Assembly (NCBI GenBank): GCA_964451165.1
Contig: CAYVGJ010000001.1
Span: 47,071-111,070, forward strand
Source: an uncultured bacterium
GTDB taxonomy: Bacteria; Auribacterota; Auribacteria; Auribacterales; Auribacteraceae
Reading direction: 5' to 3'
Length of the DNA: 64,000 bases
Shown: one piece after another, positions 16,101 to 64,000 of the stretch
How positions within the stretch are numbered: position 1 is the first letter of the stretch
Layout of the letters: every line of letters begins with the position of its first letter
Notes under the pieces: generated by a model
What the model saw: the letters and a program-made list of their open reading frames with translations, nothing else
Told to the model about the DNA's origin: nothing
Databases searched by the model: none
Program-made: the position numbers and the translations under genes

Positions 16101-19100
16101 TTGTTAGCAAAAAGATAGCGAACTTGATAGCAATATCAATGACAGCCAGGTTGGAGGTTCCTGTTTCAGAAAGAGGAAGGTTAAACCAGCTTATCTCGTC
16201 TACTTTGGATCTGGGGGGCGTGGATTTGACGGAACAAATTTATACAGCACTCAAATCCCAGCCGATTGATTATTTGAGCTCAATAGCCAATAAGAACCAT
16301 TATAATGGCAAGACAGCTCGTGTTTATGGTACTGAAATACCGGTTGTACTGCTAAATACGGTAGATTTGTTTAGAAAACGGATTGTTGAGAAGTTATTTA
16401 TGGATGAGAACCTGAAACCGCGCGATTTATACCGGGATTTAAGAAAAGTTCTGTATGGAGAAAATATCACGGAATCAGCCAGATCCGAAATGATTAAAAC
16501 AGCGTCCAAACTTCTTAAAACCCTAACCCCTGACGGGGTTCCGGTTGTAAAGGATTCGGTGGATAAAGCCAAAATGTTTTATCTTCTTATAACCAGGTAT
16601 AACAATAAAGAACTGGTTATGCCAGAACTCAGCAAACTGCCGAAATTTAAAAATATCATCCGAAGAGTCGTTTTAGGTAAAATAAATTTCAGAAATGTAC
16701 CGCGCAACCTTGCTCCGGGTGCGATTCAGTTAATTCTGTTAAGACTCCAACAGATGGTACAGCAAGGAGAAATGAATACCGAACAGGCATCGCGAATAAT
16801 TTTTCTGTTGGGAAACCATTACAGAAAAAGCAATTTTATAGATCAGAAAAAGAGTATACTTGAAGGGTTTGGGAAACTCGCGGCGAATAAGTCTATATCT
16901 CCGGCTTTACGGGCGATATCGTTAATATATATCGAATCTGCTCAGACCGGAGATGATATCTCAACCAGGGGAATCGCTACGGAAATATTCGCTGAAATAA
17001 AAGGGTATAGTTTAATGAAATCTTTAACCGGCAAGATAGAAACTAATCTTGCTCAGGTAATTGAGTCTATGGGCGCCAAACCTTATCTTGCGGATGATAT
17101 CCTTCTGGATGTTGATAAAGTACCTTTCGATTTCGCGCTTGAAACATTTAAAGCCATAAGAACAAAATGTACCTGTTTTGAGCTCGAATCGGCTCCAACG
17201 CTGTCTCAATTGCGGATGCTCTCCGATCTTGATTTCGAAACCCACTTGCTACACGACAAATTAACAGGTAAATATTATATCATAAATGGCGAGCAGTCAA
17301 CCATAAGGACTGTTATAACATCCATATTTGCGCAAACAGGGCGTGTGGATATATCCATTCATAACCACCCCTCTTTTGTGCCTGAGCAGGAAGCTATTCG
17401 CCCAAGCGCATCGGATATGGTATCTGCGCGTCTCAGTGTGCACAATTTTATTATTACCAAAACAGGAATTGTAAGATTCGGATCGCCTAAAATCAAGCCA
17501 AGTACCGGTAAAAACCATGTTTATCAAACAACTAAAGAGCTTGAGATGGAAAGGGATAAATGGATAGCGAAAATAGGCGCCGAGAATGCCACATGGGATA
17601 ATTATAACCGTACGTTCGGAATGGATATGGAAATTAGCGCTTGGAAAGATATTGCCGAATCACAAACCGTCGATCAATTCGCCGCTTCGTTTGCGACTCA
17701 AATGCCTGATACAGAAATTTTGGCTCTCGGTATATCGAGATTTAATCAGATGATGTATATGTTCGATAAAATTCAGAATCTCAATCAAATCGTCAGCTCA
17801 GGCGATGAAATAAGATCACAATCCGCGTCAGACGTGATACTTAGGTTTAATAGTTTATTTAATGAGTTCCAGTCGGTTGTTAAATTTAAAGCTACTGCTA
17901 TATCTGCCTGGCTAAAGGATGAATCGGGTTTTATTAAAGGTCAGTTGAGTATTTCTGACCCGTCAGCCGCTACCAATATTTTACGGAAATTAACGCAGAT
18001 TGAACAACTTCTGGATTCGATAAAAACAAAAGATGTTCGTGATCTGCAAAATGCCCGGGTACAAATATCGGATATTCTTAGCGTTTTATCCGAGACACAT
18101 AGAATAATGTTTGATATTACGCGCGATTTAAACCAATTGATGGCCCAGCTTCAAAGTATCGATCCCAAACAGTACCGTCTTGTTTCTGATTTTCGGATTC
18201 ATATGAAAAAAGCTATCGCTGAAATCAATAATATGAGAAAAATTCTGGAATACTCGGGTATAAAACCTTCCCTTGAGATCATAACTCAGGAAGACGATTT
18301 GTTTGCCAAACCCGATAGATTGTCTCTTGATTCGATACTTGGTTCGGCAAATATTGATTTGACTCAGATTGTGAAAGATTTACGGGATATAAAAACAGAT
18401 AAGACGCAGTACCCACAGATTTCAGTGGTTACCCGTAAAATATCAGCTATCGATACTGAATTGCCGTTCAATATAAAGGTAATGCAAATAGGCGCAGCGC
18501 TTGTGGATACCGGAGTTGCCGACCTGATCCGCAAAGGAAAAGCGGATTTGTTTGAGCTTGTTTCACAACCGAATTTCTTGCCGCGGGAACAGCGGATATT
18601 CACTGATTTGCGAAATACACAAACGGAAAAAGAATTTATCGACGTCATAAAAAAACACAGGATGACTTTTAATGAAGTGAAAGAAATCAAACGCCTATTT
18701 GAATTTACTCCCGGTGGAATACCAAAAGGCATATCGTCAGGAGTAATGCGGTTTCAGGCTTATATCAGGCCCGATATAAAGGTTGGCAAACAAAAAGTAG
18801 CCGGCAAATTGTCGAAAAACGGGTTTACCGATCTTGATAATATAAAAAAGGAGATTGCGAAAGATTCGAGTACGGTTGTTGTTTCGGTTGCCGGAAAGAA
18901 CATTAATATTGCCGTAGAGAATGAAATCCTCAAAAGGTTAGGGTTTACTTCGGAAAACCGGGTCGCTGAATTTTCGGAGTTTTTGAGATCGGCGTTAGTT
19001 ATTCGTGGCGAAACCCTTTTTTCAGGATTAACAGGCGGAGAAACCATACATCTTGGTATTGCCGATACTTCAGATACATTGTTTGTCGACCATAACGACA

Positions 19101-27326: not shown

Positions 27327-28688
27327 CTAATTCGAGGATAAAACGGCTACGACCTGTTTTTTCCGTTTTTCGGTATAGTATTCGCGGATATCGGATTCCA
27401 ATTCGTTATATGTAATCAGAGCCGAGTCTTTCAGTACAGGTTCTCCTTTGTTGCCTTTAGCAAGACTGGTAAGAATATCTTTTATGATATCTTTTCCGTA
27501 TTCCTCGATCAGGTATTCGACGGCGACATACGATTGAACGTAGGCGAGTTTGCGGTCGTACACATCAAACACATTGGCTTCGATGGAGTCCATGCGGCTG
27601 AATTTTATCAGTGATTTTCTGTTTAACGCAAGGTCAAACATTTTTGCGCGCAGACTGTCCCATTCGCCGGCGACATATTGCGCGAGGCCTTCGTTAAGCC
27701 AGAATGGAATGTTGGATCGTGTTTTGCACATAAGTGCATGATGAGTATACTCATGAGCGGCTGTTCTGGCTATTGTATCTTTGTTGCCGGATGTTACTAA
27801 GAGCCGGATTTTACCGTCATATAAACCTATTACATAGTTGCCGCTGTTGGTTATTTTATAAAAAACGTCTTCCGGGTACAGGTATACGCTTATTTCCGAC
27901 TGTGGATTAAAATTCCACCACATGCCAAGTTTTAAATACGTATCCGCAAGTCCTTTAGCGACAAGATTGGCGTGTTCACGGTACATTTTTCCCGGATAAA
28001 ATATGACGAATGGATGGCATATTTCTCTTTTATAATTGCTGTATACTTCTTTTTCCGCTTTAGCTTGTTTTGCGTTTGTGTCTGCCGGAATATTATATTT
28101 CTTGGATAACGTATCATAGTTTTCAATCGCCTCATTATAGTCTTCCATAAGACAATTTAAGTAAGCGAGAAACTTAAGTACGTACGGATCGTTGGGTTTT
28201 AATATAAGGGCGATTCGCGCTTCTTTTTCCGCCGATAGAAGATCTCCGTCGTCATAGTATAGTTTTGCTAACAGAATATGTAGCGAATCAAGATCGGAGT
28301 TTAAGTCGACCGCTTGTTCAAGAACTTTTATTGCTTTATCGCGTTGCCCTTTGCTTTTTAACTCGATGGCAAGTTCCATATATGCATTAGCAAGGTTACG
28401 CTTTATAATTTTTTGATCCGGGGCGAGTTTAAGAGCGTTTTGAAAGTATTCGATTGATCTGGCGTAATCTTTCTGGCTGGAAAAACGGATTCCCTCTTCG
28501 TTCATGATTTGCACTTTTTGCCATATCCCATGATTAATCGATGTTCTGGAAAGTGTCCAGACAGGAATTAAAAAAGGAAGAGAAAACAAAATGGTTATGA
28601 ACAGCTTTTCCTTTAAACTGGTCAAAAAATTACGAATTATGGTATAATATATTTTTTCATTCATATTACAATTTATCGGCTTTTGCAT
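27327..28688 (-). CDS. TPR + peptidase MA-like (gluzincin) protein; start codon uncertain
   Basis: N-terminal TM segment, TPRs, AAHEYTH (HExxH) followed by WLNEGLAQY and AYVQSY. Confidence 0.8.
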   Translation of the reverse strand: MQKPINCNMNEKIYYTIIRNFLTSLKEKLFITILFSLPFLIPVWTLSRTSINHGIWQKVQIMNEEGIRFSSQKDYARSIEYFQNALKLAPDQKIIKRNLANAYMELAIELKSKGQRDKAIKVLEQAVDLNSDLDSLHILLAKLYYDDGDLLSAEKEARIALILKPNDPYVLKFLAYLNCLMEDYNEAIENYDTLSKKYNIPADTNAKQAKAEKEVYSNYKREICHPFVIFYPGKMYREHANLVAKGLADTYLKLGMWWNFNPQSEISVYLYPEDVFYKITNSGNYVIGLYDGKIRLLVTSGNKDTIARTAAHEYTHHALMCKTRSNIPFWLNEGLAQYVAGEWDSLRAKMFDLALNRKSLIKFSRMDSIEANVFDVYDRKLAYVQSYVAVEYLIEEYGKDIIKDILTSLAKGNKGEPVLKDSALITYNELESDIREYYTEKRKKQVVAVLSSN

Positions 28689-28715
28689 ATTTCATTTTAA
28701 GGAATTTATAATTTC

Positions 28716-31700
28716 ATGAACTTTAAAGCTCAATCCATATCCGCAATACTTAAGGTATTGCGTACAAAATTGATGTTCAGTCTCGCCTCTGAATCGGCGA
28801 GGTTAATTTTATTGTATCCGGTATTTGTAATATTTGCGGTATTGCCTTTATGCAGTTTGTTCGGGTTGGGAGATTTGTTTATCGTATGGGGTTGCGTTAT
28901 TTGTATTGGATTTTTGGTTTACGCGCAAATAAGCTTTGTTTTTTTGAATTTATCGAAGATTATTTCCTTGCGAGCCACCGCTCGTTGGATTGAATCAGTA
29001 TATCCTTTTTATCATGGAGATTTGATATCGTCTTTCGAGTTTGAGAACAAACCGGATCTCTTTATTGATCTTGGATTTTCAGAACAACTTATCCGGGCTC
29101 ATATTGATAAGGTAAGAGAAACCGTGGATATAAAAACGATTCTGAACTCAGGTTCATTTTATCCGCGCCCGCAACCGGGCAGATTTTTGATATATTTTAC
29201 TGCCGTTCTTGTACTGCCTATGATTGTATTCCCGGATTTTTACGCGGATACGTATTACGGATTATACAGCAAATATTTCGATCCGGTAAAACCTGTACCG
29301 GAGACGCTTGTTGTAAGGCCTGGAGATACCAAAACGGTTTTTGGTTCCACAGTTGATATAAAAGCGGTGATCTTTTCTCAGGCAACTGATGTTGCTAATA
29401 TTTATGTTCGCGGGCAAAATCAGCAATGGGATAAATTCTTGATGAAAAAGGTATCGTCCACATTATATTCCTATTCCATGAAAGATATTAAAGAGAACCG
29501 CCAGTATTATGTACAGTTTGGTTCCATGAAATCTCCGGTATACGAAATTGACGCGATAACACTTCCTATTATATTGCGCCATAGAATTACTTACAGTTAC
29601 CCCGATTATACCGGATTTAGATCACAATCTGAGATACGACAGCAGTTTGACGATATTACCGCCATAAAAGGTACGAAAATAAAATTTGAGATTTTTACCA
29701 ACAACAATATTTCCAGCGCGTTTTTTATTAAAGGGAAACAAAGTGTCCCTTTTGTTCCAAAAACTTCAGATAGTGGTTATGTCGAACTGAAACTGGATGC
29801 GGAATCACCATACAATATAAAAGTTCTGGATAGTTTAGGGCAGGAGAATGAACCGTTAAAATCTTTTAATCTGATACCAATTGAAGATAAACCTCCTTCA
29901 ATTTCAATAATAAGCCCTTCGCAGTACAGTGAGATACCTTCCCAAATGGAAGCGGCTATAATGTATAATGCGTCAGATGATATATCGCTTAAAAAAGCAA
30001 TACTTATTTTTAATGTGTCTTCTGGAGAAGAAAAATCAATTATTATTGAATCCAATATAAATAAGAAAACTGTGGAAAACACATACCGCTGGGATTTAAC
30101 GTCACTTCAGCTTGTACCGGGTGATGAGATTAATTACAAAATACGCGTTTACGATAATTGCGCTCCGCCGGATGGTCCGCATTGGGCACAATCAAAAACA
30201 CAGGTGATGACGTTTCCTTCCATGGCTGAGATATATAAACGGAAAACGGAAGTTTTCGATAAACCTCAGCAAAACCTTGAATCATTGAAGGAGTCGCATG
30301 ATTTGTTGATATCGAAAATAAAAAAAATGGAAGAAAAACTCAGTTATGCCGGACAACTATCCTGGGCAGACAAAAAATCAATTCAGGAAGCAATATCGCA
30401 ACAGCTCAATACACAGCAGTCTATCGACAATACAGCGCAGCAACTTAAAAAAGATATCATTGATAACAATATATCCACTCAGATATTGAAGAATTATACG
30501 GAACTACAATCGATAATGGAATCGCTTATGAGCGAACAGATGAAACAAACGTTACGCGATATTCAGCGTATGCTTGAGCAAACCACATCGTTCCAGCAGA
30601 TGAAAAACAAGCTGGAGATATCCGCTAAAGATATGGAAAAATATAATGAGAATCTCCAGAGAATGTTAAATCTGTTTAAAAAGTTGTCTTTGCACAATAA
30701 ATTAACAGAGTTGCTGGAAGCTACCCGCCAGGCAATTTCTGAACAGGAGAAACTTAACAAGAATTTCAGCGCTTGGCAAAAATCAAAAGAAATATCGCAT
30801 GATCAGGTAAATAAAGAGCTGAATGAGATTGACAAATTTTTAAAATATATGGAAGATTCGCAAAAAACTCTTGCTTCATCCGATCCCGCAGACAATGAAC
30901 TTCGTGATCAGGTGAAATTACTGGAACAGACATATGAAACCGACCGAATGAAAGATCTGCTTGGCATGATGAAACAAAATTTATCTGAAAACAATCCGCA
31001 ATCGGCAGGCGAATCTGGAAACAGGATGCGATCAGCGATGATAAATTACGAAAAGGTTCTGAAGGCGTTGCTGGATAAGTATAAATCGGATAAGATCAAC
31101 ATAAATCAGATTGTAGATATCATTAACCGAATAGAGCGTTTATCCCGTGAAATGGAACAGTTGATTATATCAATGGATACTAATCCGGGAAAAAACACGG
31201 AAAAAAACATCGACCATGCCAGATATATGAATTATATCGAGCGTGAACTTAATCGAACAGGGACTGAGGCAAAAAATCTTGGTAAACAAAGCACCATAAT
31301 AAATTCGGCGTATTACGATCCATTGTTTGATATATCGCAGACCATGGAGAGACAAAACGAGAACGTATTCAAAAGAGGCGATCCGACAGCTTCGCTGATG
31401 ATCAAAAACGAACTTGCTAATACCCGTTTGGTGGCGATCAAGTGGATATTGCTTCTCGAATCGATAAACCGCCAGGGACAACAAGGAGGAAGCGGAAACA
31501 GTGATATGCCTGCAAATATGGATGAATTTTTCGATCAGTTGAAGAAAATGGCTGAAAAGCAATCTTCAATAAACGATAAGACATCCGGTGTTCCGAATAT
31601 GATGCCGGGCTCAAATCCGATGAGCATGCAGAATTATTTAAGCCAGCTTGCCGCTGAACAAAAGATGTTGTCGCAGGCATTAAGCAAACTAAACAAAGCG

Positions 31701-32060
31701 TATCCTGATGCATCAAAACATGTACTTGGTGATTTGAACAATATGGCGGCAGAGATGGAAAAAGCGGCTCAATCGATTAAAAAAGGCGATATTTCATCTG
31801 AACTGATTAATCGGCAGAAGAAGATTCTCACAAGATTGCTTGAATCTGAAAAATCTGTTAAAACCCGGGAAAAAAGTGATAAGAGAGAATCAAAGGAAGG
31901 TAAATTGAATAAGGTTGCGGTATCTCCCGGGGAACTGGATAAAAAACTTTATAAAGTTAAGGAAGATAAAATCAAAAAAGATGGGGTGAAATCGTATATT
32001 CCTCCTGAATATAGAGATATTGTGGATAAATATTTTCAGTATTTAATAGAGGCAAAATAA
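28716..32060 (+). CDS. Large membrane-anchored coiled-coil protein, DUF4175-like
   Basis: N-terminal TMs, LISSFEF, Ig-like region (YPDYT, EDKPPSI, WDLTSLQLVPGDEINY), long Q/E/K coiled coil, C-terminal IPPEYRDIVDKYF. Confidence 0.75.
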   Translation: MNFKAQSISAILKVLRTKLMFSLASESARLILLYPVFVIFAVLPLCSLFGLGDLFIVWGCVICIGFLVYAQISFVFLNLSKIISLRATARWIESVYPFYHGDLISSFEFENKPDLFIDLGFSEQLIRAHIDKVRETVDIKTILNSGSFYPRPQPGRFLIYFTAVLVLPMIVFPDFYADTYYGLYSKYFDPVKPVPETLVVRPGDTKTVFGSTVDIKAVIFSQATDVANIYVRGQNQQWDKFLMKKVSSTLYSYSMKDIKENRQYYVQFGSMKSPVYEIDAITLPIILRHRITYSYPDYTGFRSQSEIRQQFDDITAIKGTKIKFEIFTNNNISSAFFIKGKQSVPFVPKTSDSGYVELKLDAESPYNIKVLDSLGQENEPLKSFNLIPIEDKPPSISIISPSQYSEIPSQMEAAIMYNASDDISLKKAILIFNVSSGEEKSIIIESNINKKTVENTYRWDLTSLQLVPGDEINYKIRVYDNCAPPDGPHWAQSKTQVMTFPSMAEIYKRKTEVFDKPQQNLESLKESHDLLISKIKKMEEKLSYAGQLSWADKKSIQEAISQQLNTQQSIDNTAQQLKKDIIDNNISTQILKNYTELQSIMESLMSEQMKQTLRDIQRMLEQTTSFQQMKNKLEISAKDMEKYNENLQRMLNLFKKLSLHNKLTELLEATRQAISEQEKLNKNFSAWQKSKEISHDQVNKELNEIDKFLKYMEDSQKTLASSDPADNELRDQVKLLEQTYETDRMKDLLGMMKQNLSENNPQSAGESGNRMRSAMINYEKVLKALLDKYKSDKININQIVDIINRIERLSREMEQLIISMDTNPGKNTEKNIDHARYMNYIERELNRTGTEAKNLGKQSTIINSAYYDPLFDISQTMERQNENVFKRGDPTASLMIKNELANTRLVAIKWILLLESINRQGQQGGSGNSDMPANMDEFFDQLKKMAEKQSSINDKTSGVPNMMPGSNPMSMQNYLSQLAAEQKMLSQALSKLNKAYPDASKHVLGDLNNMAAEMEKAAQSIKKGDISSELINRQKKILTRLLESEKSVKTREKSDKRESKEGKLNKVAVSPGELDKKLYKVKEDKIKKDGVKSYIPPEYRDIVDKYFQYLIEAK

Positions 32061-53875: not shown

Positions 53876-54265
53876 ATGGGGAAATTAGCGTATATTTCTA
53901 TTCTTGTTTTATTTATGTCTTTAAATGCATATTGCGCGGAAATTAGTATTCCAAAAGAAGAAGTCGCTGAAGGTTCAAAAATTACCGATACGGAAGAGAA
54001 ATTAGGATGGGCATCCGATAAATTTATGCGTGGAATTACAAATATTCTGACCGGATGGATGGAAGTACCTAAACATATCGGTGAGAAATCAAAAACAGAA
54101 GGCCCTTTAGCAGGTAGTACCGCCGGTTTATCGTCCGGATTTACGTGGATGCTGCTTCGCACAGGCGCCGGTATCTGGGATGCGGCAACATTTCCCGGTT
54201 CATTGATTATACCTGACGAAAAACCGGTAATTGACCCTCCAACTGTATTTGAGAAAGGTGAATAG
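53876..54265 (+). CDS. Putative exosortase-associated protein, TIGR04073-like
   Basis: Signal peptide, KFMRGITNILTGWMEVPK, G..AG...G....LRTGAGIWDAATFP; AGGAG SD. Confidence 0.7.
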   Translation: MGKLAYISILVLFMSLNAYCAEISIPKEEVAEGSKITDTEEKLGWASDKFMRGITNILTGWMEVPKHIGEKSKTEGPLAGSTAGLSSGFTWMLLRTGAGIWDAATFPGSLIIPDEKPVIDPPTVFEKGE

Positions 54266-54298: not shown

Positions 54299-54328
54299 AT
54301 CCCGCTAAAAAAAAGCGGGGTTTTTTTT
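54299..54328 (+). terminator. Rho-independent terminator
   Basis: CCCGCT / AGCGGG stem followed by T8. Confidence 0.8.
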
Positions 54329-54357: not shown

Positions 54358-54385
54358 TAAAGTTTTATAAAAGTTGTGCCGATAC
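54358..54385 (+). promoter_or_regulatory. Sigma-28 (FliA/SigD)-type promoter upstream of the flagellin array
   Basis: TAAAGTTT (54358-54365), 12 nt, GCCGATAC (54378-54385); the consensus is TAAAGTTT-N11-GCCGATAA. Confidence 0.65.
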
Positions 54386-54427: not shown

Positions 54428-54652
54428 TTCAACAGGGAAGTTGAACCCAAAATCAATCAGGGAGGATTGAAAAATGGTTACTGATCAAAAAATGTATTAC
54501 CGTAAAAAATAGTAAATTTTTGAACGGTGATTTTCTGTCTTTTTATAAAATTTAACAAATGAATCAATAAATTAATTAATTATATATAGCGCAATAACTA
54601 TGTAAAACCGGCAGACAAGGATGTTTACCGGAGAAATTATCAAGGAGGATAA
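54428..54652 (+). promoter_or_regulatory. Four CsrA/RsmA-type GGA-loop hairpins in the leader of flagellin 1 (the last overlaps the SD)
   Basis: TTCAAC-agggaa-GTTGAA, TCAATC-agggag-GATTGA, ..GAC-aaggat-GTT.., TTATC-aaggag-GATAA; all match (A/U)CANGGANG(U/A). Confidence 0.7.
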
Positions 54653-54654
54653 AA

Positions 54655-55464
54655 ATGGGCGACTTATCAAGAATCAATACCAATGTAACCGCATTGCGGT
54701 CTTTCCAGACATTAACCAACATAAATTCACGGCTTGTTAAAACACAAGAGAGAATTTCTACCGGCCGGATGGTCAACAGGGCATCGGATAGTCCATCAGA
54801 TTATTATATTACCAGAATGATGAGTAAAGAAATCGACGCTACGAAACGGAAAAACGCTAATATCGAGCGCGGTATTAATTTCCTGCAGACAAACGATAGT
54901 CGCCTTGCGCAGGTTGTGAACATATTGATCGAGATGAGTGATATGGCAAACCAGGCGAACTCAATCGCAGTGACTTCAGCCGAAAAACAGGCAATTCAGC
55001 AGGATTTACAACAATTATCGCATGAAATCGAAAATATCCTTGAAAGTGGTGTTTCCGTGAAATTGTACAGTGGATTTACACTTGCGGGGTTGACCAACGT
55101 AAAGCTGACAGGCAATCTGTGTATCAATCCTCTGCAGACACTTACTATAGATGGTACAAATATTAACGTAACTGGTTCTCTAACGGATATAGATAACGCG
55201 ATAAGCAATATAAATAAAGCACTGGATGTGGTTTTGCGCGATGAAGAGAGGCTTGGTTCATACATAAAAAGGCTGGATACCGAGTATCAGCTAAATGAGA
55301 ATGAGGAAATAAACCTTCGCGCATCGCTAAGTTCCATTCAGGATTCGGATCTGGCGGCGGAACAAATGGAACTGACAAACCTGTCGATACTGCAACAGGC
55401 GGCTTTATCAATGCTTGCTCAGGCAAACAGCGCGCCGAACGCGATTATGGTTCTGTTCCAATAA
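54655..55464 (+). CDS. fliC: Flagellin 1 (minimal D0/D1 flagellin, 269 aa)
   Basis: RINTNV N-terminus, ISTG..VNRASD, IQDSDLA...LT..SILQQA..SMLAQAN C-terminus. Confidence 0.9.
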   Translation: MGDLSRINTNVTALRSFQTLTNINSRLVKTQERISTGRMVNRASDSPSDYYITRMMSKEIDATKRKNANIERGINFLQTNDSRLAQVVNILIEMSDMANQANSIAVTSAEKQAIQQDLQQLSHEIENILESGVSVKLYSGFTLAGLTNVKLTGNLCINPLQTLTIDGTNINVTGSLTDIDNAISNINKALDVVLRDEERLGSYIKRLDTEYQLNENEEINLRASLSSIQDSDLAAEQMELTNLSILQQAALSMLAQANSAPNAIMVLFQ

Positions 55465-55608
55465 TAAACAAAAGCGGACAGGGATAGTTCGCTCAAACCT
55501 TAACAGGGAGGTAGTTAAAGATGTACCTTGAAAACACTTGAGATCTGAATTAAAGATTTTGAGCGGAATCTATCCCGAAAAACAATACGAATTAAACAAA
55601 CAGAAAAA

Positions 55609-55792
55609 CCGCGAACAGGGAAGTTCTCGGGAAAATTAAAACAGGGAGGTTATCATGAAGTGGATCAAATTATGAATTTATAAAATGAACCCGGTTTAAT
55701 AAAAATAGATAAAAAAGTTAGTAAATTAAGCCATAATATGATTGTTGTCAGGGAAGACGGCAATTGAGAAATTAACAAAATCAAGGAGGATT
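55609..55792 (+). promoter_or_regulatory. CsrA-type GGA-loop hairpins upstream of flagellin 2
   Basis: ACAGGGAAGT (55615), ACAGGGAGGT (55641), TCAGGGAAGA (55748, 9-bp stem), TCAAGGAGGA (55781, SD); another site at 55503. Confidence 0.7.
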
Positions 55793-55797
55793 TAAAA

Positions 55798-56607
55798 ATG
55801 GGTGATCTATCAAGAATAAACACTAATGTATCGGCTTTAAGAAGTTTTCAAACTTTAACAAATATTAATACGAGGCTTGTAAAGAGCCAGGAACAAATAT
55901 CTACCGGTAAAGTTGTCAACAGGGCATCGGATAGTCCATCGGATTATTATATAACGCGAATGCTGGACACAAATATAAATTCGGTAAAACGGCAGAATTC
56001 AAATATTGAGCGCGGTATAAATTTTCTGCAGACCAACGACAGCCGTCTTGCCCAGGTAGCCAATATCCTGATTGAGATGAGTGATCTAGCCAATCAATCG
56101 AATTCAATAGCGGTTACGTCGGCTGAGAAACAAGCTATACAACAGGATCTAACCCAACTTGCTGAAGAAATCGAAGCGATTTTGCAAAGCGGTGTAAGCG
56201 CCAAACTTTATGCCGGATTTACTTTGGGCGGTTTAGAGAACGTAAAACTTACAGGGAACCTAACCGCTAATCCGCTGGGTAGTTTATCCTTGAATGGGAC
56301 AAACCTGAATGTTACCGGCTCGATGGTGGATATAGAAACAACCATAATGAATATTGATTCCGCATTGAATGTAATATTGCGCGATGAGGAACGGCTTGGA
56401 TCCTTTATAAAAAGGCTTGAGACTGAATATCAGATGAACGATGTGGAGGAAGTCAATTTGCGAGCATCTTTAAGCTCAATTCAGGATACCGACCTGGCAT
56501 CCGAGCAGATGGAATTGACTAAGCTGTCAATACTTCAGCAGGCATCGTTATCGATGTTGGCTCAGGCAAACTCCGCGCCGCAATCGGTAATGCAATTGTT
56601 CTCATAA
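55798..56607 (+). CDS. fliC: Flagellin 2 (269 aa)
   Basis: Same flagellin termini; paralog of flagellin 1. Confidence 0.9.
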   Translation: MGDLSRINTNVSALRSFQTLTNINTRLVKSQEQISTGKVVNRASDSPSDYYITRMLDTNINSVKRQNSNIERGINFLQTNDSRLAQVANILIEMSDLANQSNSIAVTSAEKQAIQQDLTQLAEEIEAILQSGVSAKLYAGFTLGGLENVKLTGNLTANPLGSLSLNGTNLNVTGSMVDIETTIMNIDSALNVILRDEERLGSFIKRLETEYQMNDVEEVNLRASLSSIQDTDLASEQMELTKLSILQQASLSMLAQANSAPQSVMQLFS

Positions 56608-56839
56608 GATTAGTTAGGAAAATTTGATGAGTGAAATTCACCAGAATAAGGCAAAGATAAAAATTGATAGCAAAAGTTGAATTAAACAAATAAGGCAAGA
56701 TTAAATGAACATAAAAGAAAGACCAAACAGGAGGATCATGAAAGAGTATCAACGAAGAGAAAATTAGTCTAAACAGGGAAAGTTAAAACTATAACGCAAC
56801 AAAAAAATGATCAATGTTAAAACCATGGAGGGAAAAAAC

Positions 56840-57649
56840 ATGGGTGATTTAGCGAGAATAAATACTAATGTGGCGGCTTTACGAAGTTTTCAGACACTGA
56901 CAAATATTAATACGCGATTGGTTACTGTACAGGAACATATATCAACCGGTAAGACTGTAAACAGAGCTTCCGATAGCCCGTCGGATTACTATATATCGAG
57001 AATGCTTGAGCGGGATATCAATTCGCTCAAACGCAAAAATGACAATATTGAGCGGGGTATAAATTATCTGCAGACCAACGACAGCCGGCTTGCTCAGGTA
57101 GCCAACATCCTGATTGAGATGAGCGATATGGCAAACCAGGCAAACTCGCTCGCGGTAACATCCGCTGAAAAACAGGCGATTCAACAGGACCTTGATCAGC
57201 TTAAATCTGAGATTGAGGCGATTCTGCAGAGCGGTGTAAGTCAGAAATTATATACCGGATTTACCCTTGGAGGACTGAAAAACGTAAAACTTACTGGTAA
57301 CCTTGTCCTGAATCCACTTGCGAACTTGACTCTAAACGGGACAAACATAAATGTAACAGGTAGCCAGACAGTACTTGACACAACGATACGGAATATCGAC
57401 AAAGCGCTTGATGTAGTCCTGCGCGATGAGGAACGGCTCGGCTCGTTTATACGCAGGCTGGAAGTGGAATCTGAAGTGAACGATGTTGAGGGAGTTAACC
57501 AGAAAGCCTCATTAAGTTCGATTCAGGATGCGGATTTGGCTGAAGAACAGCTCGAATACACAAAACTGAACATACTGCAACAGACATCTATGGCGATGAT
57601 GGCTCAGGCTAACACTGCACCGCAATCGATAATGCAGTTGTTCGGGTAA
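56840..57649 (+). CDS. fliC: Flagellin 3 (269 aa)
   Basis: Start moved to the ATG at 56840 (MGDLAR) by alignment with paralogs and the GGAGG SD. Confidence 0.9.
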   Translation: MGDLARINTNVAALRSFQTLTNINTRLVTVQEHISTGKTVNRASDSPSDYYISRMLERDINSLKRKNDNIERGINYLQTNDSRLAQVANILIEMSDMANQANSLAVTSAEKQAIQQDLDQLKSEIEAILQSGVSQKLYTGFTLGGLKNVKLTGNLVLNPLANLTLNGTNINVTGSQTVLDTTIRNIDKALDVVLRDEERLGSFIRRLEVESEVNDVEGVNQKASLSSIQDADLAEEQLEYTKLNILQQTSMAMMAQANTAPQSIMQLFG

Positions 57650-57664
57650 TATAAAAAATTTATG

Positions 57665-57705
57665 GTTGCGGCTGGTGGATAGTTTATACATCCTTCGGCC
57701 GCAAC
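57665..57705 (+). other. Long GC-rich hairpin after flagellin 3 (copy at 58741-58781), no U-tract
   Basis: GTTGCGGC / GCCGCAAC outer stem with an inner GGAT / ATCC stem. Confidence 0.5.
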
Positions 57706-57915
57706 GGAGAACGATGATGAAACTGTAAAAGTATTATATAACTACAAATTCGATGGATACTTGGAAAGGAATGGTGACTACTGATTGAGAATATGTGTGT
57801 ATAAAAGAAAATCTGTTTGGATTGGGAAAAATATAAAGGCTTAAATGATGATTGTGTAAACATCTTAAAATAAAATAATTATAAAAACAGATAAACATAT
57901 TTAAGGAGAAAACAA

Positions 57916-58725
57916 ATGGGTGATTTAGCAAGAGTTAATACTAATGTGTCTGCGTTGAGGTCGTTTCAAACCTTAACCGGGATTAACAACAGGCTTGTAA
58001 AAACACAGGAAGCGATTTCAACAGGCAAAGTCGTCAACAGAGCTTCCGATGCGCCGTCGGATTACTATATTTCAAGGATGTTGGAGAAGGATATTAACTC
58101 ATTGAAACGCAAAAACGACAACATCGAACGCGGTATCAATTTCCTGCAGACCAACGACAGCCGGCTCGCTCAGGTAGCCAACATCCTTATTGAGATGAGC
58201 GATATGGCGAACCAGGCGAATTCCATTGCTGTAACCTCAGCCGAGAAACAGGCTATCCAGCAGGATATAGATCAGTTGAAGATGGAAATCGAGAATATTC
58301 TTCATAGCGGTGTCAGCGCGAAATTGTATTCCGGGTTTACTCTTGGCGGGCTTGAGAACGTAAAACTTACAGGTAACCTCATAACCAATCCGCTTGGAAG
58401 TTTAACTCTTGACGGGACAAATCTGAATGTAACCGGAAGCCAGACAACCCTTGAGACAACGATACGGAATATCGACAAAGCGCTTGATATAGTCCTGCGC
58501 GATGAGGAACGGCTCGGCTCGTTTATCCGCAGGCTGGAAGTGGAATCGGAAGTAAACGATGTTGAGGGAGTTAACCAGAAAGCGTCATTAAGCTCGATTC
58601 AGGACGCGGATCTGGCTGAACAACAACTGGAATACACAAAACTGAGCATACTTCAACAAACATCTATGGCGATGATGGCTCAGGCTAACACTGCACCACA
58701 ATCGATAATGCAGTTGTTCGGGTAA
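57916..58725 (+). CDS. fliC: Flagellin 4 (269 aa)
   Basis: Flagellin termini; protein identical to flagellin 5. Confidence 0.9.
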   Translation: MGDLARVNTNVSALRSFQTLTGINNRLVKTQEAISTGKVVNRASDAPSDYYISRMLEKDINSLKRKNDNIERGINFLQTNDSRLAQVANILIEMSDMANQANSIAVTSAEKQAIQQDIDQLKMEIENILHSGVSAKLYSGFTLGGLENVKLTGNLITNPLGSLTLDGTNLNVTGSQTTLETTIRNIDKALDIVLRDEERLGSFIRRLEVESEVNDVEGVNQKASLSSIQDADLAEQQLEYTKLSILQQTSMAMMAQANTAPQSIMQLFG

Positions 58726-58991
58726 TATAAAAAATTTATGGTTGCGGCTGGTGGATAGTTTATACATCCTTCGGCCGCAACGGAGAACGATGATGAAACT
58801 GTAAAAGTATTATATAACTACAAATTCGATGGATACTTGGAAAGGAATGGTGACTACTGATTGAGAATATGTGTGTATAAAAGAAAATCTGTTTGGATTG
58901 GGAAAAATATAAAGGCTTAAATGATGATTGTGTAAACATCTTAAAATAAAATAATTATAAAAACAGATAAACATATTTAAGGAGAAAACAA

Positions 58992-59801
58992 ATGGGTGAT
59001 TTAGCAAGAGTTAATACTAATGTGTCTGCGTTGAGGTCGTTTCAAACCTTAACCGGGATTAACAACAGGCTTGTAAAAACACAGGAAGCGATTTCAACAG
59101 GCAAAGTCGTCAACAGAGCTTCCGATGCGCCGTCGGATTACTATATTTCAAGGATGTTGGAGAAGGATATTAACTCATTGAAACGCAAAAACGACAACAT
59201 CGAACGCGGTATCAATTTCCTGCAGACCAACGACAGCCGGCTCGCTCAGGTAGCCAACATCCTTATTGAGATGAGCGATATGGCGAACCAGGCGAATTCC
59301 ATTGCTGTAACCTCAGCCGAGAAACAGGCTATCCAGCAGGATATAGATCAGTTGAAGATGGAAATCGAGAATATTCTTCATAGCGGTGTCAGCGCGAAAT
59401 TGTATTCCGGGTTTACTCTTGGCGGGCTTGAGAACGTAAAACTTACAGGTAACCTCATAACCAATCCGCTTGGAAGTTTAACTCTTGACGGGACAAATCT
59501 GAATGTAACCGGAAGCCAGACAACCCTTGAGACAACGATACGGAATATCGACAAAGCGCTTGATATAGTCCTGCGCGATGAGGAACGGCTCGGCTCGTTT
59601 ATCCGCAGGCTGGAAGTGGAATCGGAAGTAAACGATGTTGAGGGAGTTAACCAGAAAGCGTCATTAAGCTCGATTCAGGACGCGGATCTGGCTGAACAAC
59701 AACTGGAATACACAAAACTGAGCATACTTCAACAAACATCTATGGCGATGATGGCTCAGGCTAACACTGCACCGCAATCAATAATGCAGTTGTTCGGTTA
59801 A
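58992..59801 (+). CDS. fliC: Flagellin 5 (269 aa)
   Basis: Flagellin termini; protein identical to flagellin 4. Confidence 0.88.
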   Translation: MGDLARVNTNVSALRSFQTLTGINNRLVKTQEAISTGKVVNRASDAPSDYYISRMLEKDINSLKRKNDNIERGINFLQTNDSRLAQVANILIEMSDMANQANSIAVTSAEKQAIQQDIDQLKMEIENILHSGVSAKLYSGFTLGGLENVKLTGNLITNPLGSLTLDGTNLNVTGSQTTLETTIRNIDKALDIVLRDEERLGSFIRRLEVESEVNDVEGVNQKASLSSIQDADLAEQQLEYTKLSILQQTSMAMMAQANTAPQSIMQLFG

Positions 59802-60046
59802 TTAAAACGCTTTTATGGAAGGGTTGGCTAATATGAAATTTGAATATGGTTTATGAAAAAAAGAGTGTTTGAATGTTATTGGATAATAAACAAAAGAAAA
59901 AGAATTAGAAACACCGAAAGGAGGAATTTTACACAAATTTAAATTAAAAAAAGAACCGGATTCAATATAAACATTGATTTATATAAGCCCTAAGGCTGTT
60001 TGCATGGAAGCAAACGAGGCGAAAAAACAAACAAGGAGGAATTAAA

Positions 60047-60856
60047 ATGGGTGATTTAGCAAGAGTAAACACAAACGTTGCTGCGTTGAGAGGTTTTCAA
60101 ACATTAACCAGTATCAATAACCGTCTGGTTAAAAGTCAGGAAGCTATATCGACGGGTAAAGTCGTAAACAGAGCATCAGATAGTCCGTCCGATTATTACA
60201 TATCGCGGACATTACAGAGAGATATCAACTCGCTTAAACGCAAAAACGACAACATTGAGCGCGGTGTGAATTTCCTGCAGACCAACGATAGCCGGTTGGC
60301 GCAGGTAGCCAATATCCTGATTGAGATGAGCGATATGGCAAACCAGGCAAACTCAATAGCTGTGACGTCGGCTGAGAAACAGGCAATCCAGCAGGATATT
60401 CAGCAATTGAGTATGGAGATAGAAAACATTCTGCAGAGCGGAGTCAGCGCCAAATTGTACACAGGATTTACGCTTGGCGGGCTAAAGAATGTGAAACTTA
60501 CTGGTAACCTGACTCAAAACGCACTTACAAAGCTGACTCTGGACGGAAATAACCTGAATGTTACAGGAAACCAGACAACACTTGACAGCACAATCAGGAA
60601 TATTGATAAGGCGCTTGATACGGTCTTAAGAGACGAGGAAAGGCTTGGTTCATTCATAAGAAGGTTGGATGTTGAATCAGAGGTGAATGAGGTTGAGGGT
60701 GTCAATCAGAAAGCATCGTTGAGCTCGATTCAGGATGCGGATCTGGCTGAACAACAGTTGGAGTTGACTAAACTAAGTATTCTTCAGCAGACATCTATCG
60801 CGATGCTTGCTCAGGCAAATTCGGCACCGCAATCTGTAATGCAGTTATTCGGATAA
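60047..60856 (+). CDS. fliC: Flagellin 6 (269 aa)
   Basis: Flagellin termini; ACAAGGAGGA SD. Confidence 0.9.
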   Translation: MGDLARVNTNVAALRGFQTLTSINNRLVKSQEAISTGKVVNRASDSPSDYYISRTLQRDINSLKRKNDNIERGVNFLQTNDSRLAQVANILIEMSDMANQANSIAVTSAEKQAIQQDIQQLSMEIENILQSGVSAKLYTGFTLGGLKNVKLTGNLTQNALTKLTLDGNNLNVTGNQTTLDSTIRNIDKALDTVLRDEERLGSFIRRLDVESEVNEVEGVNQKASLSSIQDADLAEQQLELTKLSILQQTSIAMLAQANSAPQSVMQLFG

Positions 60857-61111
60857 TAAAAGGAGGATTAAAATATAACAGTTAGGTTTATTTAAAAACT
60901 CAAACTGAATCAAAATCAAAACTTTGAAAAGGAGGTGATTAGTCCCTTAACGGCAGGATGATTATGTGAAATAAACAAATTCGGTGAACACAATCGATTC
61001 CTTTCGCTGGGGATAAACTGAAATGGACCTTATGAAAAGAGGATTTAATTAGATGAATTATGTATTTGACACGGAAGAAATTTTTCTGAAACAAAACAAG
61101 GAGGATTAACA

Positions 61112-61918
61112 ATGGGTGATTTAGCAAGAGTAAATACTAATGTTGCGGCTTTAAGAGGGTTCCAGACATTAACAAACATAAATAACAGGTTGGTAAAAAG
61201 TCAGGAAGCCATATCTACAGGTAAAATAGTAAACCGCGCATCCGACAGCCCTTCTGATTACTATATCTCGAGGACATTGGAGAGAGATATAAACTCGTTG
61301 CAACGAAAAAACGACAATATCGAACGCGGTATAAATTTCCTGCAAACCAATGATAGCCGTCTCGCTCAGGTAGCGAATATATTGATCGAGATGAGTGATA
61401 TGGCTAACCAGGCAAACTCTATCGCCGTAACATCGGCTGAAAAACAAGCCATCCAGCAGGATTTGAGTCAGTTGAAACTGGAAATCGAAAATATTCTGCA
61501 GAGTGGTGTCAGTGCCAAATTGTACACAGGGTTTACGCTTGGCGGATTGAAAAACGTGAAACTCACAGGTAACCTGACAGCTAACGCGATAACCACACTT
61601 ACTCTGGATGGAAACAACATGAACGTAACCGGAAACCAGGCGACACTTGACGCTACAATAAAAAATATTGATAAAGCGTTGTCGGTTGTATTGAGTGATG
61701 AGGAAAGGTTAGGTTCATTCATCCGCAGATTGGAAGTTGAATCGGATGTGAACGAAGTCGAAGGGTTAAATCAGAAAGCGTCGTTGAGTTCAATTCAGGA
61801 TGCTGATCTTGCGGAACAACAGTTGGAGTTAACAAAACTCAGTATACTCCAGCAAACAAGTATAGCGATGTTGGCTCAGGCAAATTCTGCGCCTCAATCT
61901 GTAATGCAGTTGTTCTAA
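61112..61918 (+). CDS. fliC: Flagellin 7 (268 aa)
   Basis: Flagellin termini; ACAAGGAGGA SD. Confidence 0.9.
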   Translation: MGDLARVNTNVAALRGFQTLTNINNRLVKSQEAISTGKIVNRASDSPSDYYISRTLERDINSLQRKNDNIERGINFLQTNDSRLAQVANILIEMSDMANQANSIAVTSAEKQAIQQDLSQLKLEIENILQSGVSAKLYTGFTLGGLKNVKLTGNLTANAITTLTLDGNNMNVTGNQATLDATIKNIDKALSVVLSDEERLGSFIRRLEVESDVNEVEGLNQKASLSSIQDADLAEQQLELTKLSILQQTSIAMLAQANSAPQSVMQLF

Positions 61919-61943
61919 TAATTGAATTGATATTGCGAATAAA

Positions 61944-61977
61944 TACCGGGAACCGTTACATGATACGGTTCCCGGTA
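61944..61977. other. Perfect 13-bp hairpin after flagellin 7 (terminator or mRNA-stabilising element)
   Basis: TACCGGGAACCGT / ACGGTTCCCGGTA, 8-nt loop; no U-tract on the + strand. Confidence 0.6.
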
Positions 61978-62178
61978 GAAAGAAATTAAAAATGGTTCTG
62001 TTTTACGGTAATAACATTAACATTCTTTTATTAAGGAGGTGCATTATTATGTAATTGATTTTGGTCAGAATGGATATGGATCTGGCGTATTGCGAATCAT
62101 ATCTTTTTCTGATCATGCTGTAAGAAGTATGTATAGTTCGCATGGACGCAAAAAACAAAACACATGGAGGAATTAAAA

Positions 62179-62985
62179 ATGGGTGATTTAGCAAGAGTAA
62201 ACACAAACGTTGCGGCTTTAAGAGGGTTCCAGACATTAACAGGTATAAACAACAGATTGGTAAAAAGTCAGGAAGCCATATCTACAGGTAAAATAGTAAA
62301 CCGCGCTTCAGACAGTCCTTCGGATTATTATATATCAAGGACTTTGGAGAGAGATATTAATTCATTGCAACGAAAAAACGACAATATCGAGCGCGGTATA
62401 AATTTCCTGCAAACCAATGATAGCCGTCTTGCTCAGGTAGCGAATATATTGATCGAGATGAGTGATATGGCTAACCAGGCAAACTCTATCGCCGTAACAT
62501 CGGCTGAAAAACAAGCCATCCAGCAGGATTTGAGTCAGTTGAAACTGGAAATCGAAAATATTCTGCAGAGTGGTGTCAGCGCCAAATTGTATACCGGATT
62601 CACACTTGGCGGATTGAAAAACGTAAAACTCACAGGTAACCTGACAACCAACCCAATAAGCTCGCTGACTCTGGATGGCACTAACCTTAACGTAACCGGT
62701 AATCAGGCATCGCTTGACGCTACAATAAAAAATATAGATACAGCGTTGTCGGTTGTATTGAGTGATGAGGAAAGATTAGGATCGTTTATCCGCAGGCTGG
62801 AGGTTGAATCGGATGTAAATGAAGTCGAGGGATTAAACCAGAAAGCATCATTGAGCTCAATTCAGGATGCGGATCTGGCTGAACAACAGTTGGAGTTGAC
62901 AAAACTCAGCATACTGCAGCAAACCAGTATAGCGATGTTGGCCCAGGCAAATTCAGCTCCGCAATCAGTAATGCAGTTGTTCTAA
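62179..62985 (+). CDS. fliC: Flagellin 8 (268 aa)
   Basis: Start moved to the ATG at 62179 (MGDLAR) after ACATGGAGGA. Confidence 0.9.
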   Translation: MGDLARVNTNVAALRGFQTLTGINNRLVKSQEAISTGKIVNRASDSPSDYYISRTLERDINSLQRKNDNIERGINFLQTNDSRLAQVANILIEMSDMANQANSIAVTSAEKQAIQQDLSQLKLEIENILQSGVSAKLYTGFTLGGLKNVKLTGNLTTNPISSLTLDGTNLNVTGNQASLDATIKNIDTALSVVLSDEERLGSFIRRLEVESDVNEVEGLNQKASLSSIQDADLAEQQLELTKLSILQQTSIAMLAQANSAPQSVMQLF

Positions 62986-62997
62986 TTTAAAAAAGTT

Positions 62998-63028
62998 AAG
63001 GCTGGGCAACATTGTTTTGCCCGGCCTT
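62998..63028. other. 12-bp hairpin after flagellin 8
   Basis: AAGGCTGGGCAA / TTGCCCGGCCTT (one G-U pair); no U-tract on the + strand. Confidence 0.55.
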
Positions 63029-63231
63029 GAGGGGATAAAATTTCTATAAAGGAGGTGATGCCATGACATGATCAAAGTAACATAAACCAAAAAATTTTGA
63101 TAGGAGGTGATGCCGGCTTATCAAATGAGAATGATTAGTTTTAAATTAACATTGCCGGATTGCATTGGATGGTTTAATCCGGCGCAAGGATGCGAATTAA
63201 GGCATTGAAAAAAAACAAGGAGGATTTTTAA

Positions 63232-64000
63232 ATGGGTGATTTAGCAAGAGTAAATACTAACGTTGCCGCATTAAAAGGTTTTCAAACATTAACGGACATA
63301 AACAAAAGACTGGTAAAGTCGCAGGAAGCTATATCGACAGGTAAAACCGTGAATCGCGCTTCCGATAGCCCTTCAGATTACTATATCTCAAGGACTTTGG
63401 ACAGAGATATCAACTCTCTGAAACGCAAAAATGATAATATCGAACGCGGTATAAATTTCCTGCAGACCAACGACAGCCGGCTCGCTCAGGTTGCGAACAT
63501 ATTGATCGAGATGAGCGATATGGCAAACCAGGCTAACAGCATCGCGGTAACATCGGCGGAAAAACAAGCCATCCAGCAGGATTTGGATCAGTTGAAACTG
63601 GAGATTGAAAATATCCTGCAAAGTGGAGTCAGCCAGAAACTCTATACAGGGTTTACACTTGGTGGATTGAAAGACGTGAAATTAACGGGTAATTTAACTT
63701 CAAATTCTTTAACAACTCTTACTCTTAACGGTACAAACTTAAACGTTACCGGGAGTCAGACAACACTCGACTCCACAATAAAAAATATCGATAACGCGTT
63801 GTCTGTTGTTTTGGGAGACGAGGAAAGATTGGGTTCTTTTATCCGTAGGCTGGAGGTTGAATCAGATGTAAATGAAGTTGAGGGGCTGAACCAGAAGGCA
63901 TCATTGAGCTCGATTCAGGATGCGGATCTTGCCGAGCAACAACTTGAGTTGACAAAGCTGAGCATACTACAGCAAACCAGTATAGCGATGCTCGCTCAGG
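63232..64000 (+). CDS. fliC: Flagellin 9, partial (truncated by the window end)
   Basis: Not in the ORF track. Manual translation gives MGDLARVNTNVAALKGFQTLTDINKRLVKSQEAISTG... to ...SILQQTSIAMLAQ, open at 64000. Confidence 0.9.
   Translation, partial: MGDLARVNTNVAALKGFQTLTDINKRLVKSQEAISTGKTVNRASDSPSDYYISRTLDRDINSLKRKNDNIERGINFLQTNDSRLAQVANILIEMSDMANQANSIAVTSAEKQAIQQDLDQLKLEIENILQSGVSQKLYTGFTLGGLKDVKLTGNLTSNSLTTLTLNGTNLNVTGSQTTLDSTIKNIDNALSVVLGDEERLGSFIRRLEVESDVNEVEGLNQKASLSSIQDADLAEQQLELTKLSILQQTSIAMLAQ

Follow-up and report, generated by a model that had tools for sequence, protein, structure and literature searches.

A tandem array of short flagellin genes with candidate CsrA sites in an uncultured member of the Auribacterota

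The final part of a 64,000-nt stretch of chromosome from an uncultured bacterium of the Auribacterota (GenBank assembly GCA_964451165.1, contig CAYVGJ010000001.1, positions 47,071 to 111,070; hereafter the window, meaning this stretch at its full length) is occupied by an array of flagellin genes, F1 to F9, lying head to tail on the forward strand. With a probability of roughly 60%, this array is a chromosomal, late-flagellar multi-flagellin locus that encodes eight distinct flagellins built from domains D0 and D1 only, is partly gated by FliW and CsrA, and is closest to the arrays of the magnetotactic cocci MO-1 and MC-1. In such a locus, transcription would occur late, from a sigma-28 promoter, with read-through along the array and perhaps with help from unrecognised internal promoters. 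Translation of those copies that carry leader hairpins would be blocked by CsrA until export of flagellin frees FliW to bind CsrA, a gating modelled on the Hag/FlaA partner switch. The products would then co-assemble into a multi-flagellin filament, to which A-type, B-type and presumed cluster-encoded C-type flagellins would contribute in different amounts or positions.

Eight or nine short flagellins

Nine forward-strand open reading frames (ORFs) of 268–269 aa follow one another from position 54655 to past 64000, with spacers of 232–333 nt and no gene between them. The initial annotation of this DNA had counted nine consecutive flagellin ORFs with no other flagellar gene interspersed; the ORFs are present and the array is indeed uninterrupted, with the caveat that F4 and F5 are duplicates. 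The genes, assigned to two classes discussed below, and a tandem repeat spanning F4 and F5 are as follows:

54655..55464, + strand: F1, a 269-aa A-type (array-head) flagellin (ORF, Pfam, tree)
55798..56607, + strand: F2, a 269-aa A-type flagellin (ORF, Pfam, tree)
56840..57649, + strand, alternative longer start at 56807: F3, a 269-aa B-type flagellin, mosaic (ORF, Pfam, sequence comparison)
57916..58725, + strand: F4, a 269-aa B-type flagellin whose leader has no GGA hairpin and a weaker Shine-Dalgarno (SD) sequence, AAGGAG (ORF, Pfam)
58992..59801, + strand: F5, same protein as F4; other same-species assemblies give no support for it as a separate gene
60047..60856, + strand: F6, a 269-aa B-type flagellin (ORF, Pfam)
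61112..61918, + strand: F7, a 268-aa B-type flagellin (ORF, Pfam)
62179..62985, + strand, alternative longer start at 62164: F8, a 268-aa B-type flagellin (ORF, Pfam)
63232..64000, + strand: F9, a B-type flagellin cut by the window edge at codon 256; complete (268 aa) and the last array gene in same-species contig L001
57623..58697, + strand: copy 1 of an exact tandem repeat of 1,075 nt (unit length 1,076 nt), covering the final 27 nt of F3, the spacer and all of F4 except the final 28 nt
58699..59773, + strand: copy 2 of the repeat, 57623–58697 being exactly equal to 58699–59773

Judged by domain, structure and model comparisons, the array proteins are ordinary short flagellins with a predicted D0/D1 coiled-coil fold that lacks D2/D3. 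Scanned on distinct sequences (the F5 protein being that of F4), every protein matches Pfam Flagellin_N (PF00669) at residues 7–130 (E 5e-21 to 1e-23) and Flagellin_C (PF00700) at residues 183–268 (E 1e-13 to 2e-16; F9 is cut by the window), and many NCBIfam flagellin models match all array proteins, none at equivalog level. F4 aligns end to end with solved filament flagellins of 270–286 aa. Its AlphaFold (AF2) model, with a predicted local distance difference test (pLDDT) value of 72, places helices at residues 2–36, 47–102, 108–130 and 176–268, with a low-confidence stretch at 131–175. Foldseek matches it (template modelling score 0.75–0.78, probability 1.0) to filament flagellins of 270–304 aa from Leptospira (FlaB), Kurthia, Roseburia, Shewanella, B. 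subtilis and Caulobacter. The earlier description of these proteins as minimal, D0/D1-only flagellins is thus borne out, all matches being to short filament flagellins; the variable loop of about 30 aa that accompanied it is better given as a non-helical middle of about 45 aa (residues 131–175 of the AlphaFold model).

The array ends with F9. Same-species contigs L001 and L002, at 99.6–99.7% nucleotide identity, carry F5–F9, and the complete 268-aa F9 is followed there by non-flagellin genes: a 103-aa ORF, a 626-aa membrane protein, gpsA, an M48 peptidase, clpB and dnaK. A count of at least nine genes that might continue beyond the window, as initially proposed, therefore gives way to an array closed at F9 and perhaps of eight genes, for the F4 and F5 proteins are identical and the two genes diverge only within their last 28 nt. 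Three other same-species assemblies are most simply read as carrying one gene between F3 and F6. In ERZ27257500, a contig ending 139 nt into F4 overlaps a contig starting 2 nt before the ‘F5’ ATG by exactly 141 nt, the k-mer length; in JGI 3300022666, the overlap between the corresponding pair of contigs, left and right, is exactly 127 nt, again equal to k, inside the F4/F5 gene; and in JGI 3300022664 a 1,315-nt contig (L086) joins the F3 3' end to an F5-type tail by way of a single gene. All three assemblies nevertheless break within the F4/F5 gene, the gene has two haplotypes and the F4 tail has a private base, so a very recent and perhaps strain-specific duplication may have occurred. At the level of sequence, eight distinct paralogues are certain; the ninth gene depends on the assembly and, since F4/F5 is a perfect duplicate that other assemblies are most simply taken to hold once, the total appears to be eight or nine. 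Collapse of the array to a few copies, the outcome that the initial annotation had named as fatal to it, is thus confined at most to F4/F5, the other eight genes being distinct and recurrent.

The difficulty is a general one. In short-read metagenomes (L048–L059, L080–L084, L086) arrays appear mostly as 1–4 kb fragments ending inside flagellin genes, and a metagenome scan for further contigs of the window’s species returned other species only, mostly as fragments of 1.5–3 kb; exact look-ups of the F4/F5 protein brought up no record. As arrays fragment short-read assemblies, flagellin counts in metagenome-assembled genomes (MAGs) of the Auribacterota are unreliable; they are likely to be underestimates in general and, in the present case, possibly an overestimate by one.

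Across the nine array genes, protein identity is 72–100% and DNA identity 66–99.6%; the eight distinct paralogues share 66–91% of nucleotides. All array genes are intact and under strong purifying selection: the pairwise ratio of nonsynonymous to synonymous divergence (dN/dS) is 0.03–0.09, and synonymous divergence (dS) is saturated for most pairs, exceptions being F7/F8 (0.5) and F4/F5 (0.017). Variable residues cluster at about 55–66, 118–125 and 147–204, with D0 nearly invariant. Gene conversion has been occasional, with local tracts linking the F3 3' end with F4 (3' 300 nt 88–98% identical, 5' part 62–80%) and F7 with F8 (90.7% nucleotide identity overall, including a tract 99–100% identical).

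Flagellin classes and flagellar machinery in relatives

The closest homologues of the array proteins are annotated as Candidatus Auribacterota or Ca. Auribacter fodinae, and NCBI taxonomy places Candidatus Auribacterota within the PVC group. Arrays of 8–15 genes occur in other genera on contigs of 42–765 kb: L005 carries 15 genes (on a 765-kb contig) and L006 eight; SURF_26 has at least ten in L004 and four in L008, its array running off the contig; and R3-B46 has array fragments. More distant Auribacterota (L010, L011) have a single flagellin. The chromosomal site is conserved among genera, as the flanking genes are common to them. On the 5' side, a TIGR04073 gene, encoding an exosortase-system-associated small secreted protein, lies directly before the arrays of three genera (window 53876–54265 on the + strand; L004 1761–2030; L007 6339–6710). 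On the 3' side, the L006 array is followed by the 626-aa protein, M48 and ClpB, as in the window’s species. The 626-aa protein (L001 5531–7411, L006 13544–15358) is a polytopic membrane protein with a weak PMT_2 (GT-C-like) match that follows the array in two genera. N-glycosylation of the flagellins by this neighbour was considered and rejected: N-X-S/T sequons number 3–6 per protein against 3.6–4.7 expected from composition (P 0.3–0.8), and only one is widely conserved. No glycosylation gene was found next to the array.

Neighbour-joining trees were built with our own script and 200 bootstraps. The third array gene in L005 (4595–5320) and L007 (9124–9837) is a divergent, flagellin-like one of 241 aa with about 27% identity to F4, which is absent from the window, L004 and L006; such genes were removed from the trees owing to long-branch attraction and a shifting position. 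An A-type clade (bootstrap 161/200) comprises the first one to three genes of every array, including F1 and F2, and the remaining array genes, termed B-type, form lineage-specific clades (F3–F9 199/200, L006 186, SURF_26 193), with A and B grouping together in 171 of 200 replicates. These trees show A and B to be two old classes, of which A always stands at the array head and B has multiplied separately in each lineage; their split is older than the genera, and the array position of the classes has been kept.

A third clade, C-type (189/200), holds flagellins 63–69% identical to F4 that are encoded within a flagellar gene cluster, with the context flgF-flgG-flgA-flgH-flgI-flgJ-flgN-flgK-flgL-fliW-csrA-flagellin-fliD-fliS in every genome examined; a more distant version of this cluster is also found in the Auribacterota. 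Array and cluster occur in a single genome, the MAG HK-STAS-UBP3-1 (array L006 on JACKPL010000013, cluster L046 on JACKPL010000002), and an array-bearing member of the phylum therefore has genes for the rod, L-/P-ring, junction, cap and chaperone proteins, FliW, CsrA and an extra flagellin. The cluster flagellin occurs in six other Auribacterota genomes; csrA and fliW adjoin the flagellin gene in L011, L043–L047, L087 and L088, flgM lies at the edge of L043, L044 and L045 from relatives, and SURF_26 encodes flagella according to a published survey (PMC9324843). The initial annotation had held that a missing flagellar apparatus would count against a filament role. That objection falls for the relatives, where L-/P-ring, rod, hook-junction, cap and chaperone genes are present; searches aimed at the window’s own species returned distant short contigs only (FliW) or were swamped by other phyla (FlgI), and a match that was followed up (P0186) lies on a contig of 56.5% GC and unknown taxon, not tied to that species.

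The leaders of C-type genes (L043, L044, L046) share the sequence CTG(G/A)TTGCTTG(A/G) 110–130 nt before the ATG, upstream of a CsrA-type hairpin and without a sigma-28 match. The C-type cluster genes may belong to a promoter class differing from that of the arrays.

Promoter and leader elements

Before F1 stands a sigma-28 (FliA)-like promoter that departs from the consensus TAAA-N15-GCCGATAA by one mismatch and has an N16 spacer. Equivalent sites with 0–1 mismatch lie 297–347 nt before the first gene of arrays L004, L005, L006 and L007, and a sigma-28-like site also precedes the single flagellin genes of L010 and L011. Within the window’s internal array spacers there is no sigma-28 match within one mismatch and no GG-N10-GC candidate for a sigma-54 promoter, and sigma-70-like matches turn up less often than in shuffled sequence. 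Behind F3/F4, F7 and F8 stand GC-rich stem-loops that lack a T-run on the + strand; Rfam families give only sub-threshold matches, on the upstream terminator; and neither an invertible switch nor inverted repeats were found in the array. From this layout we infer one late promoter with read-through; internal promoters of unrecognised type are possible, for instance with starts just upstream of AAGGAGGTGAT motifs. The transcriptional features are:

54301..54328, + strand: intrinsic terminator, CCCGC-loop-GCGGG then T8, which ends the TIGR04073 gene and insulates the array
54358..54385, + strand: sigma-28 (FliA)-like promoter TAAA-N16-GCCGATAC, placed 269 nt ahead of the F1 ATG and without a second example in the array
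61944..61977, no strand assigned: 13-bp GC-rich stem-loop right after the F7 stop, with a T-run absent on the + strand and present on the − strand
63000..63026, no strand assigned: stem-loop right after the F8 stop, GGCTGGGCAA...TTGCCCGGCC

Alignment and k-mer comparison of the window’s spacers recovered only SD and A-rich words as shared motifs. It took the leaders of other genera, set side by side, to reveal a hairpin: across the aligned leaders of all arrays it stands 33–49 nt before most start codons, with a loop of six bases, A-N-G-G-A-N, closed by C:G. In a covariation test on 47 leaders anchored on the GGA alone, with no selection by stem, 77.8% of stem cells of a 7-bp helix pair, against 48.1% in shuffles (0 of 500 reach the observed value) and 32–43% when the frame is slid; the covariation score is 0.70 against 0.20, with double changes at all seven pairs. 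Searched on both strands, the 64 kb contain eight CANGGANG hexaloop hairpins with stems of at least 4 bp, and all eight lie in flagellin leaders: four at F1 and three at F2 (one in each case presenting the SD) and one at F6. Over 11 loci their density is 16.5 per kb in leader windows versus 0.035 per kb elsewhere, and the leader hairpins are present in minimum free energy folds. The version at F9 is weak (3 bp) and that at F8 decayed. The SD itself is CA[ACU]GGAGGA in most copies, and each SD holds a further GGA, some 25–35 nt from that of the hairpin. The elements identified are:

54428..54445, + strand: CANGGANG hairpin 1 of the F1 leader, UUCAAC-AGGGAA-GUUGAA
54453..54470, + strand: CANGGANG hairpin 2 of the F1 leader, UCAAUC-AGGGAG-GAUUGA
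54613..54626, + strand: CANGGANG hairpin 3 of the F1 leader, AGAC-AAGGAU-GUUU, lying 36 nt ahead of the ATG and corresponding to BS1 of B. subtilis and SL1 of C. jejuni
54637..54652, + strand: hairpin with the F1 SD in its loop, UUAUC-AAGGAG-GAUAA, equivalent to BS2/SL2
55613..55626, + strand: CANGGANG hairpin in the F1–F2 spacer, GAAC-AGGGAA-GUUC
55739..55766, + strand: 11-bp CANGGANG hairpin, 46 nt before the F2 ATG
55778..55793, + strand: hairpin presenting the F2 SD, AAAUC-AAGGAG-GAUUU
59997..60016, + strand: 7-bp CANGGANG hairpin, UGUUUGC-AUGGAA-GCAAACG, 41 nt before the F6 ATG
63183..63194, + strand: weak (3-bp) CANGGANG hairpin, CGC-AAGGAU-GCG, 44 nt before the F9 ATG

A hexaloop of the CANGGANG type is a published high-affinity CsrA/RsmE site (PMC4894983), and in the two-hairpin flaA leader of C. 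jejuni both CsrA binding and its antagonism by FliW have been shown (PMC4894983; also PMC6529632). As the leaders combine this motif with the C. jejuni-like layout, and fliW and csrA adjoin the C-type flagellin gene, FliW-CsrA gating is the best-supported mechanism for the array; the predicted gating appears strongest for the A-type genes.

A second leader element is an extended complementarity to the anti-SD sequence of the ribosome, AGGAGGTG(A), of which the 64 kb hold four copies on either strand, all in the F6–F7, F7–F8 and F8–F9 spacers:

60930..60938, + strand: AGGAGGTGA leader motif, fully complementary to the anti-SD
62034..62054, + strand: AGGAGGTGC motif, then a mini-ORF of start and stop codon only (ATG TAA, 62049–62054)
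63050..63110, + strand: two AGGAGGTGATGCC motifs (63050 and 63102) in the F8–F9 spacer

The motif is also found in the spacers of other arrays and, in L010 and L011, 35–45 nt beyond the -10 element of the sigma-28 site; an ATG with 0–3 codons and a stop often comes next. Possible roles are those of a ribosome-binding element that stabilises the mRNA, a mini-ORF or an additional CsrA site.

Known systems, rival explanations and chromosomal setting

Flagellin arrays of this size are documented mainly in Magnetococcus. M. massalia MO-1 has 14 flagellin genes and M. marinus MC-1 has 15, the highest number found according to a 2020 review, most of them in a tandem array and one in a flgKL-fliW-flaG-fliD-fliS cluster (PMC7175107). 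The initial annotation had drawn the comparison with MO-1, and the likeness proves closer still: the Auribacterota array also lies away from other flagellar genes, HK-STAS-UBP3-1 pairs its array with a single flagellin in a flgKL-fliW-csrA-fliD-fliS cluster, no insertion sequence element or flanking repeat accounts for the duplications, and a relative has as many as 15 copies in one array (L005). The magnetotactic cocci differ in belonging to the Pseudomonadota, a phylum unrelated to the Auribacterota of the PVC group, in having 14–15 genes where the window has 8–9, and in that the sheath, glycosylation, bundled filaments and expression of MO-1 were shown experimentally. As the two phyla are distant, the array-plus-cluster layout probably arose more than once, and repeated origin suggests a selected design rather than the oddity of a single lineage.

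The regulatory parallel is with Hag-FliW-CsrA of B. subtilis and FlaA-FliW-CsrA of C. jejuni, where likewise a 5' hairpin with an ANGGA hexaloop is paired with a second GGA at the SD, 25–35 nt apart; as in those systems, the flagellin gene of Auribacterota clusters comes directly after fliW and csrA, and the hairpin stems are supported by compensatory changes, as in Campylobacter (PMC4894983, PMC6529632). The Auribacterota element differs in being spread over many paralogues, multiplied in some (four at F1, three at F2) and lost or decayed in several. Caulobacter crescentus (FljJ–FljO) also has several D0/D1-only flagellins of about 273 aa, which are among the solved-structure and fold matches, and its six flagellins co-assemble into one filament; it has only those six genes, in contrast to a single array of 8–15. 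The Caulobacter genes occupy two loci, and their translation is controlled by FlbT and FlaF, not CsrA. All six of its flagellins are O-glycosylated by FlmG (PMC7591256). The type of arrangement, a rare one, and the CsrA-FliW switch were therefore known already; what is new, and described for the Auribacterota arrays, is the A/B/C class structure, the sigma-28 promoter at the array head only, the uneven distribution of CsrA-type hairpins and the repeated lineage-specific expansion.

Several observations weigh against a FliW-CsrA-gated multi-flagellin locus. No csrA, fliW, fliA or export gene is tied to the window’s own genome, and the 64 kb hold none. A few sigma-28 matches within one mismatch occur elsewhere in the window by chance; the array yielded neither an internal promoter nor a clear + strand terminator, which leaves the transcript structure conjectural. 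With no hairpin upstream of F3, F4, F5 and F7, gating by CsrA may be limited to some of the genes. F4 and F5 may be a single gene. A rival in which the copies are interchangeable, and gene number only raises flagellin output for long or numerous flagella, would account for B-type genes that are equal in length, 85–97% identical in protein and clustered by lineage, for a copy number that differs between genera (8 to 15) and for the strong SD on every copy; F4/F5, F7/F8 and the F3 3' end, with their recent duplication or conversion tracts, point the same way. It is nevertheless unlikely. With dS saturated between most copies and dN/dS still at 0.03–0.09, each copy has been long kept separately and not homogenised, the A/B split is older than the genera, with the classes retaining their places in the array, and the leaders differ systematically, from four CsrA-type hairpins at F1 and three at F2 to one or none at most B-type genes here. 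Where the initial annotation offered either a segmented, sheathed or bundled filament or amplified dosage, it is the second, in its pure form, that sits poorly with old, separately conserved A and B classes bearing different leaders.

That the array is instead a repertoire for variation, with one or a few flagellins on at once and the surface changed to escape flagellotropic phages or grazers, is very unlikely. Differences between paralogues do concentrate in the exposed middle (about 118–125 and 147–204) whilst D0 is nearly invariant, and the expansions are lineage-specific; against this, there is no invertible element, inverted repeat or recombinase in or beside the array, each gene comes with an intact frame and an SD of its own, and the variable region is short, its variation modest and not hypervariable. 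Inflation of the array by mis-assembly of fewer genes is extremely improbable as an explanation of the whole. The 100% identity of F4 and F5 over 1,075 nt, the overlaps of exactly k (141 and 127) inside that gene and the passage of L086 through one gene from the F3 3' end to an F5-type tail are what mis-assembly would leave, but they concern one gene, and even there the private base of the F4 tail is not created by simple loop traversal. The eight genes are not an assembly artefact, as they share only 66–91% of nucleotides, with saturated synonymous divergence, and as F1–F3 and F5–F9 recur in unchanged order in independent assemblies; arrays of 8–15 genes on long contigs (42–765 kb) elsewhere argue likewise. 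Equally remote is the suggestion that some copies are secreted or regulatory paralogues, like C. jejuni FlaC or the regulatory paralogue of Caulobacter: non-filament paralogues are known in other multi-flagellin species (PMC7591256, PMC5466977), and the divergent 241-aa member of arrays L005 and L007 could be of this kind, but all nine window genes have full-length, highly conserved D0 and D1, and the divergent type is absent from the window.

A more ambitious extension of the gated multi-flagellin reading would be that the Auribacterota evolved a complex, three-class propeller independently of the magnetotactic cocci, with the A-type leaders doubling as a CsrA sponge that times a takeover by B-type flagellins. 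This is distinctly unlikely at present; were it true, the hairpin-poor B-type copies would largely escape CsrA, and relatives resembling L005, with 15 array genes and a presumed cluster gene, would have the largest flagellin complement reported for any bacterium. The phylum offers a natural comparison series, with one flagellin in some lineages and 8, at least 13 and 15 in others, and paralogues with and without CsrA-type hairpins yield testable predictions on ordered synthesis. It is worth noting that, as there is no cultured member, such tests are confined to heterologous systems or meta-omics.

Outside the array, no flagellar or chemotaxis gene was found in the remainder of the 64-kb window, which consists of ordinary chromosomal genes: two HDOD proteins, an lpxL-like gene, lpxK, RNase HII, RNase PH, an extracytoplasmic function (ECF) sigma factor with its anti-sigma, a complete atp operon, parB, parA, mnmG, a P-type ATPase and a flavodiiron protein. 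Two long ORFs, at 7196–21673 (+ strand, 4,825 aa) and 28716–32060 (1,114 aa), lack any Pfam match at E <= 1e-4. The − strand carries, at 28673–28699, a perfect match to the sigma-28 consensus (TAAA-N15-GCCGATAA), just upstream of the ORF at 27327–28688, its -10 box running into the first codons of this gene for a TPR and Peptidase_MA_2 protein; the site may be due to chance or mark a member of the sigma-28 regulon. Finally, a flagellin 81% identical to F4 (P0021) comes from a EukProt TRINITY transcriptome, which hints that a relative within the Auribacterota is transcriptionally active in a protist culture or sample.

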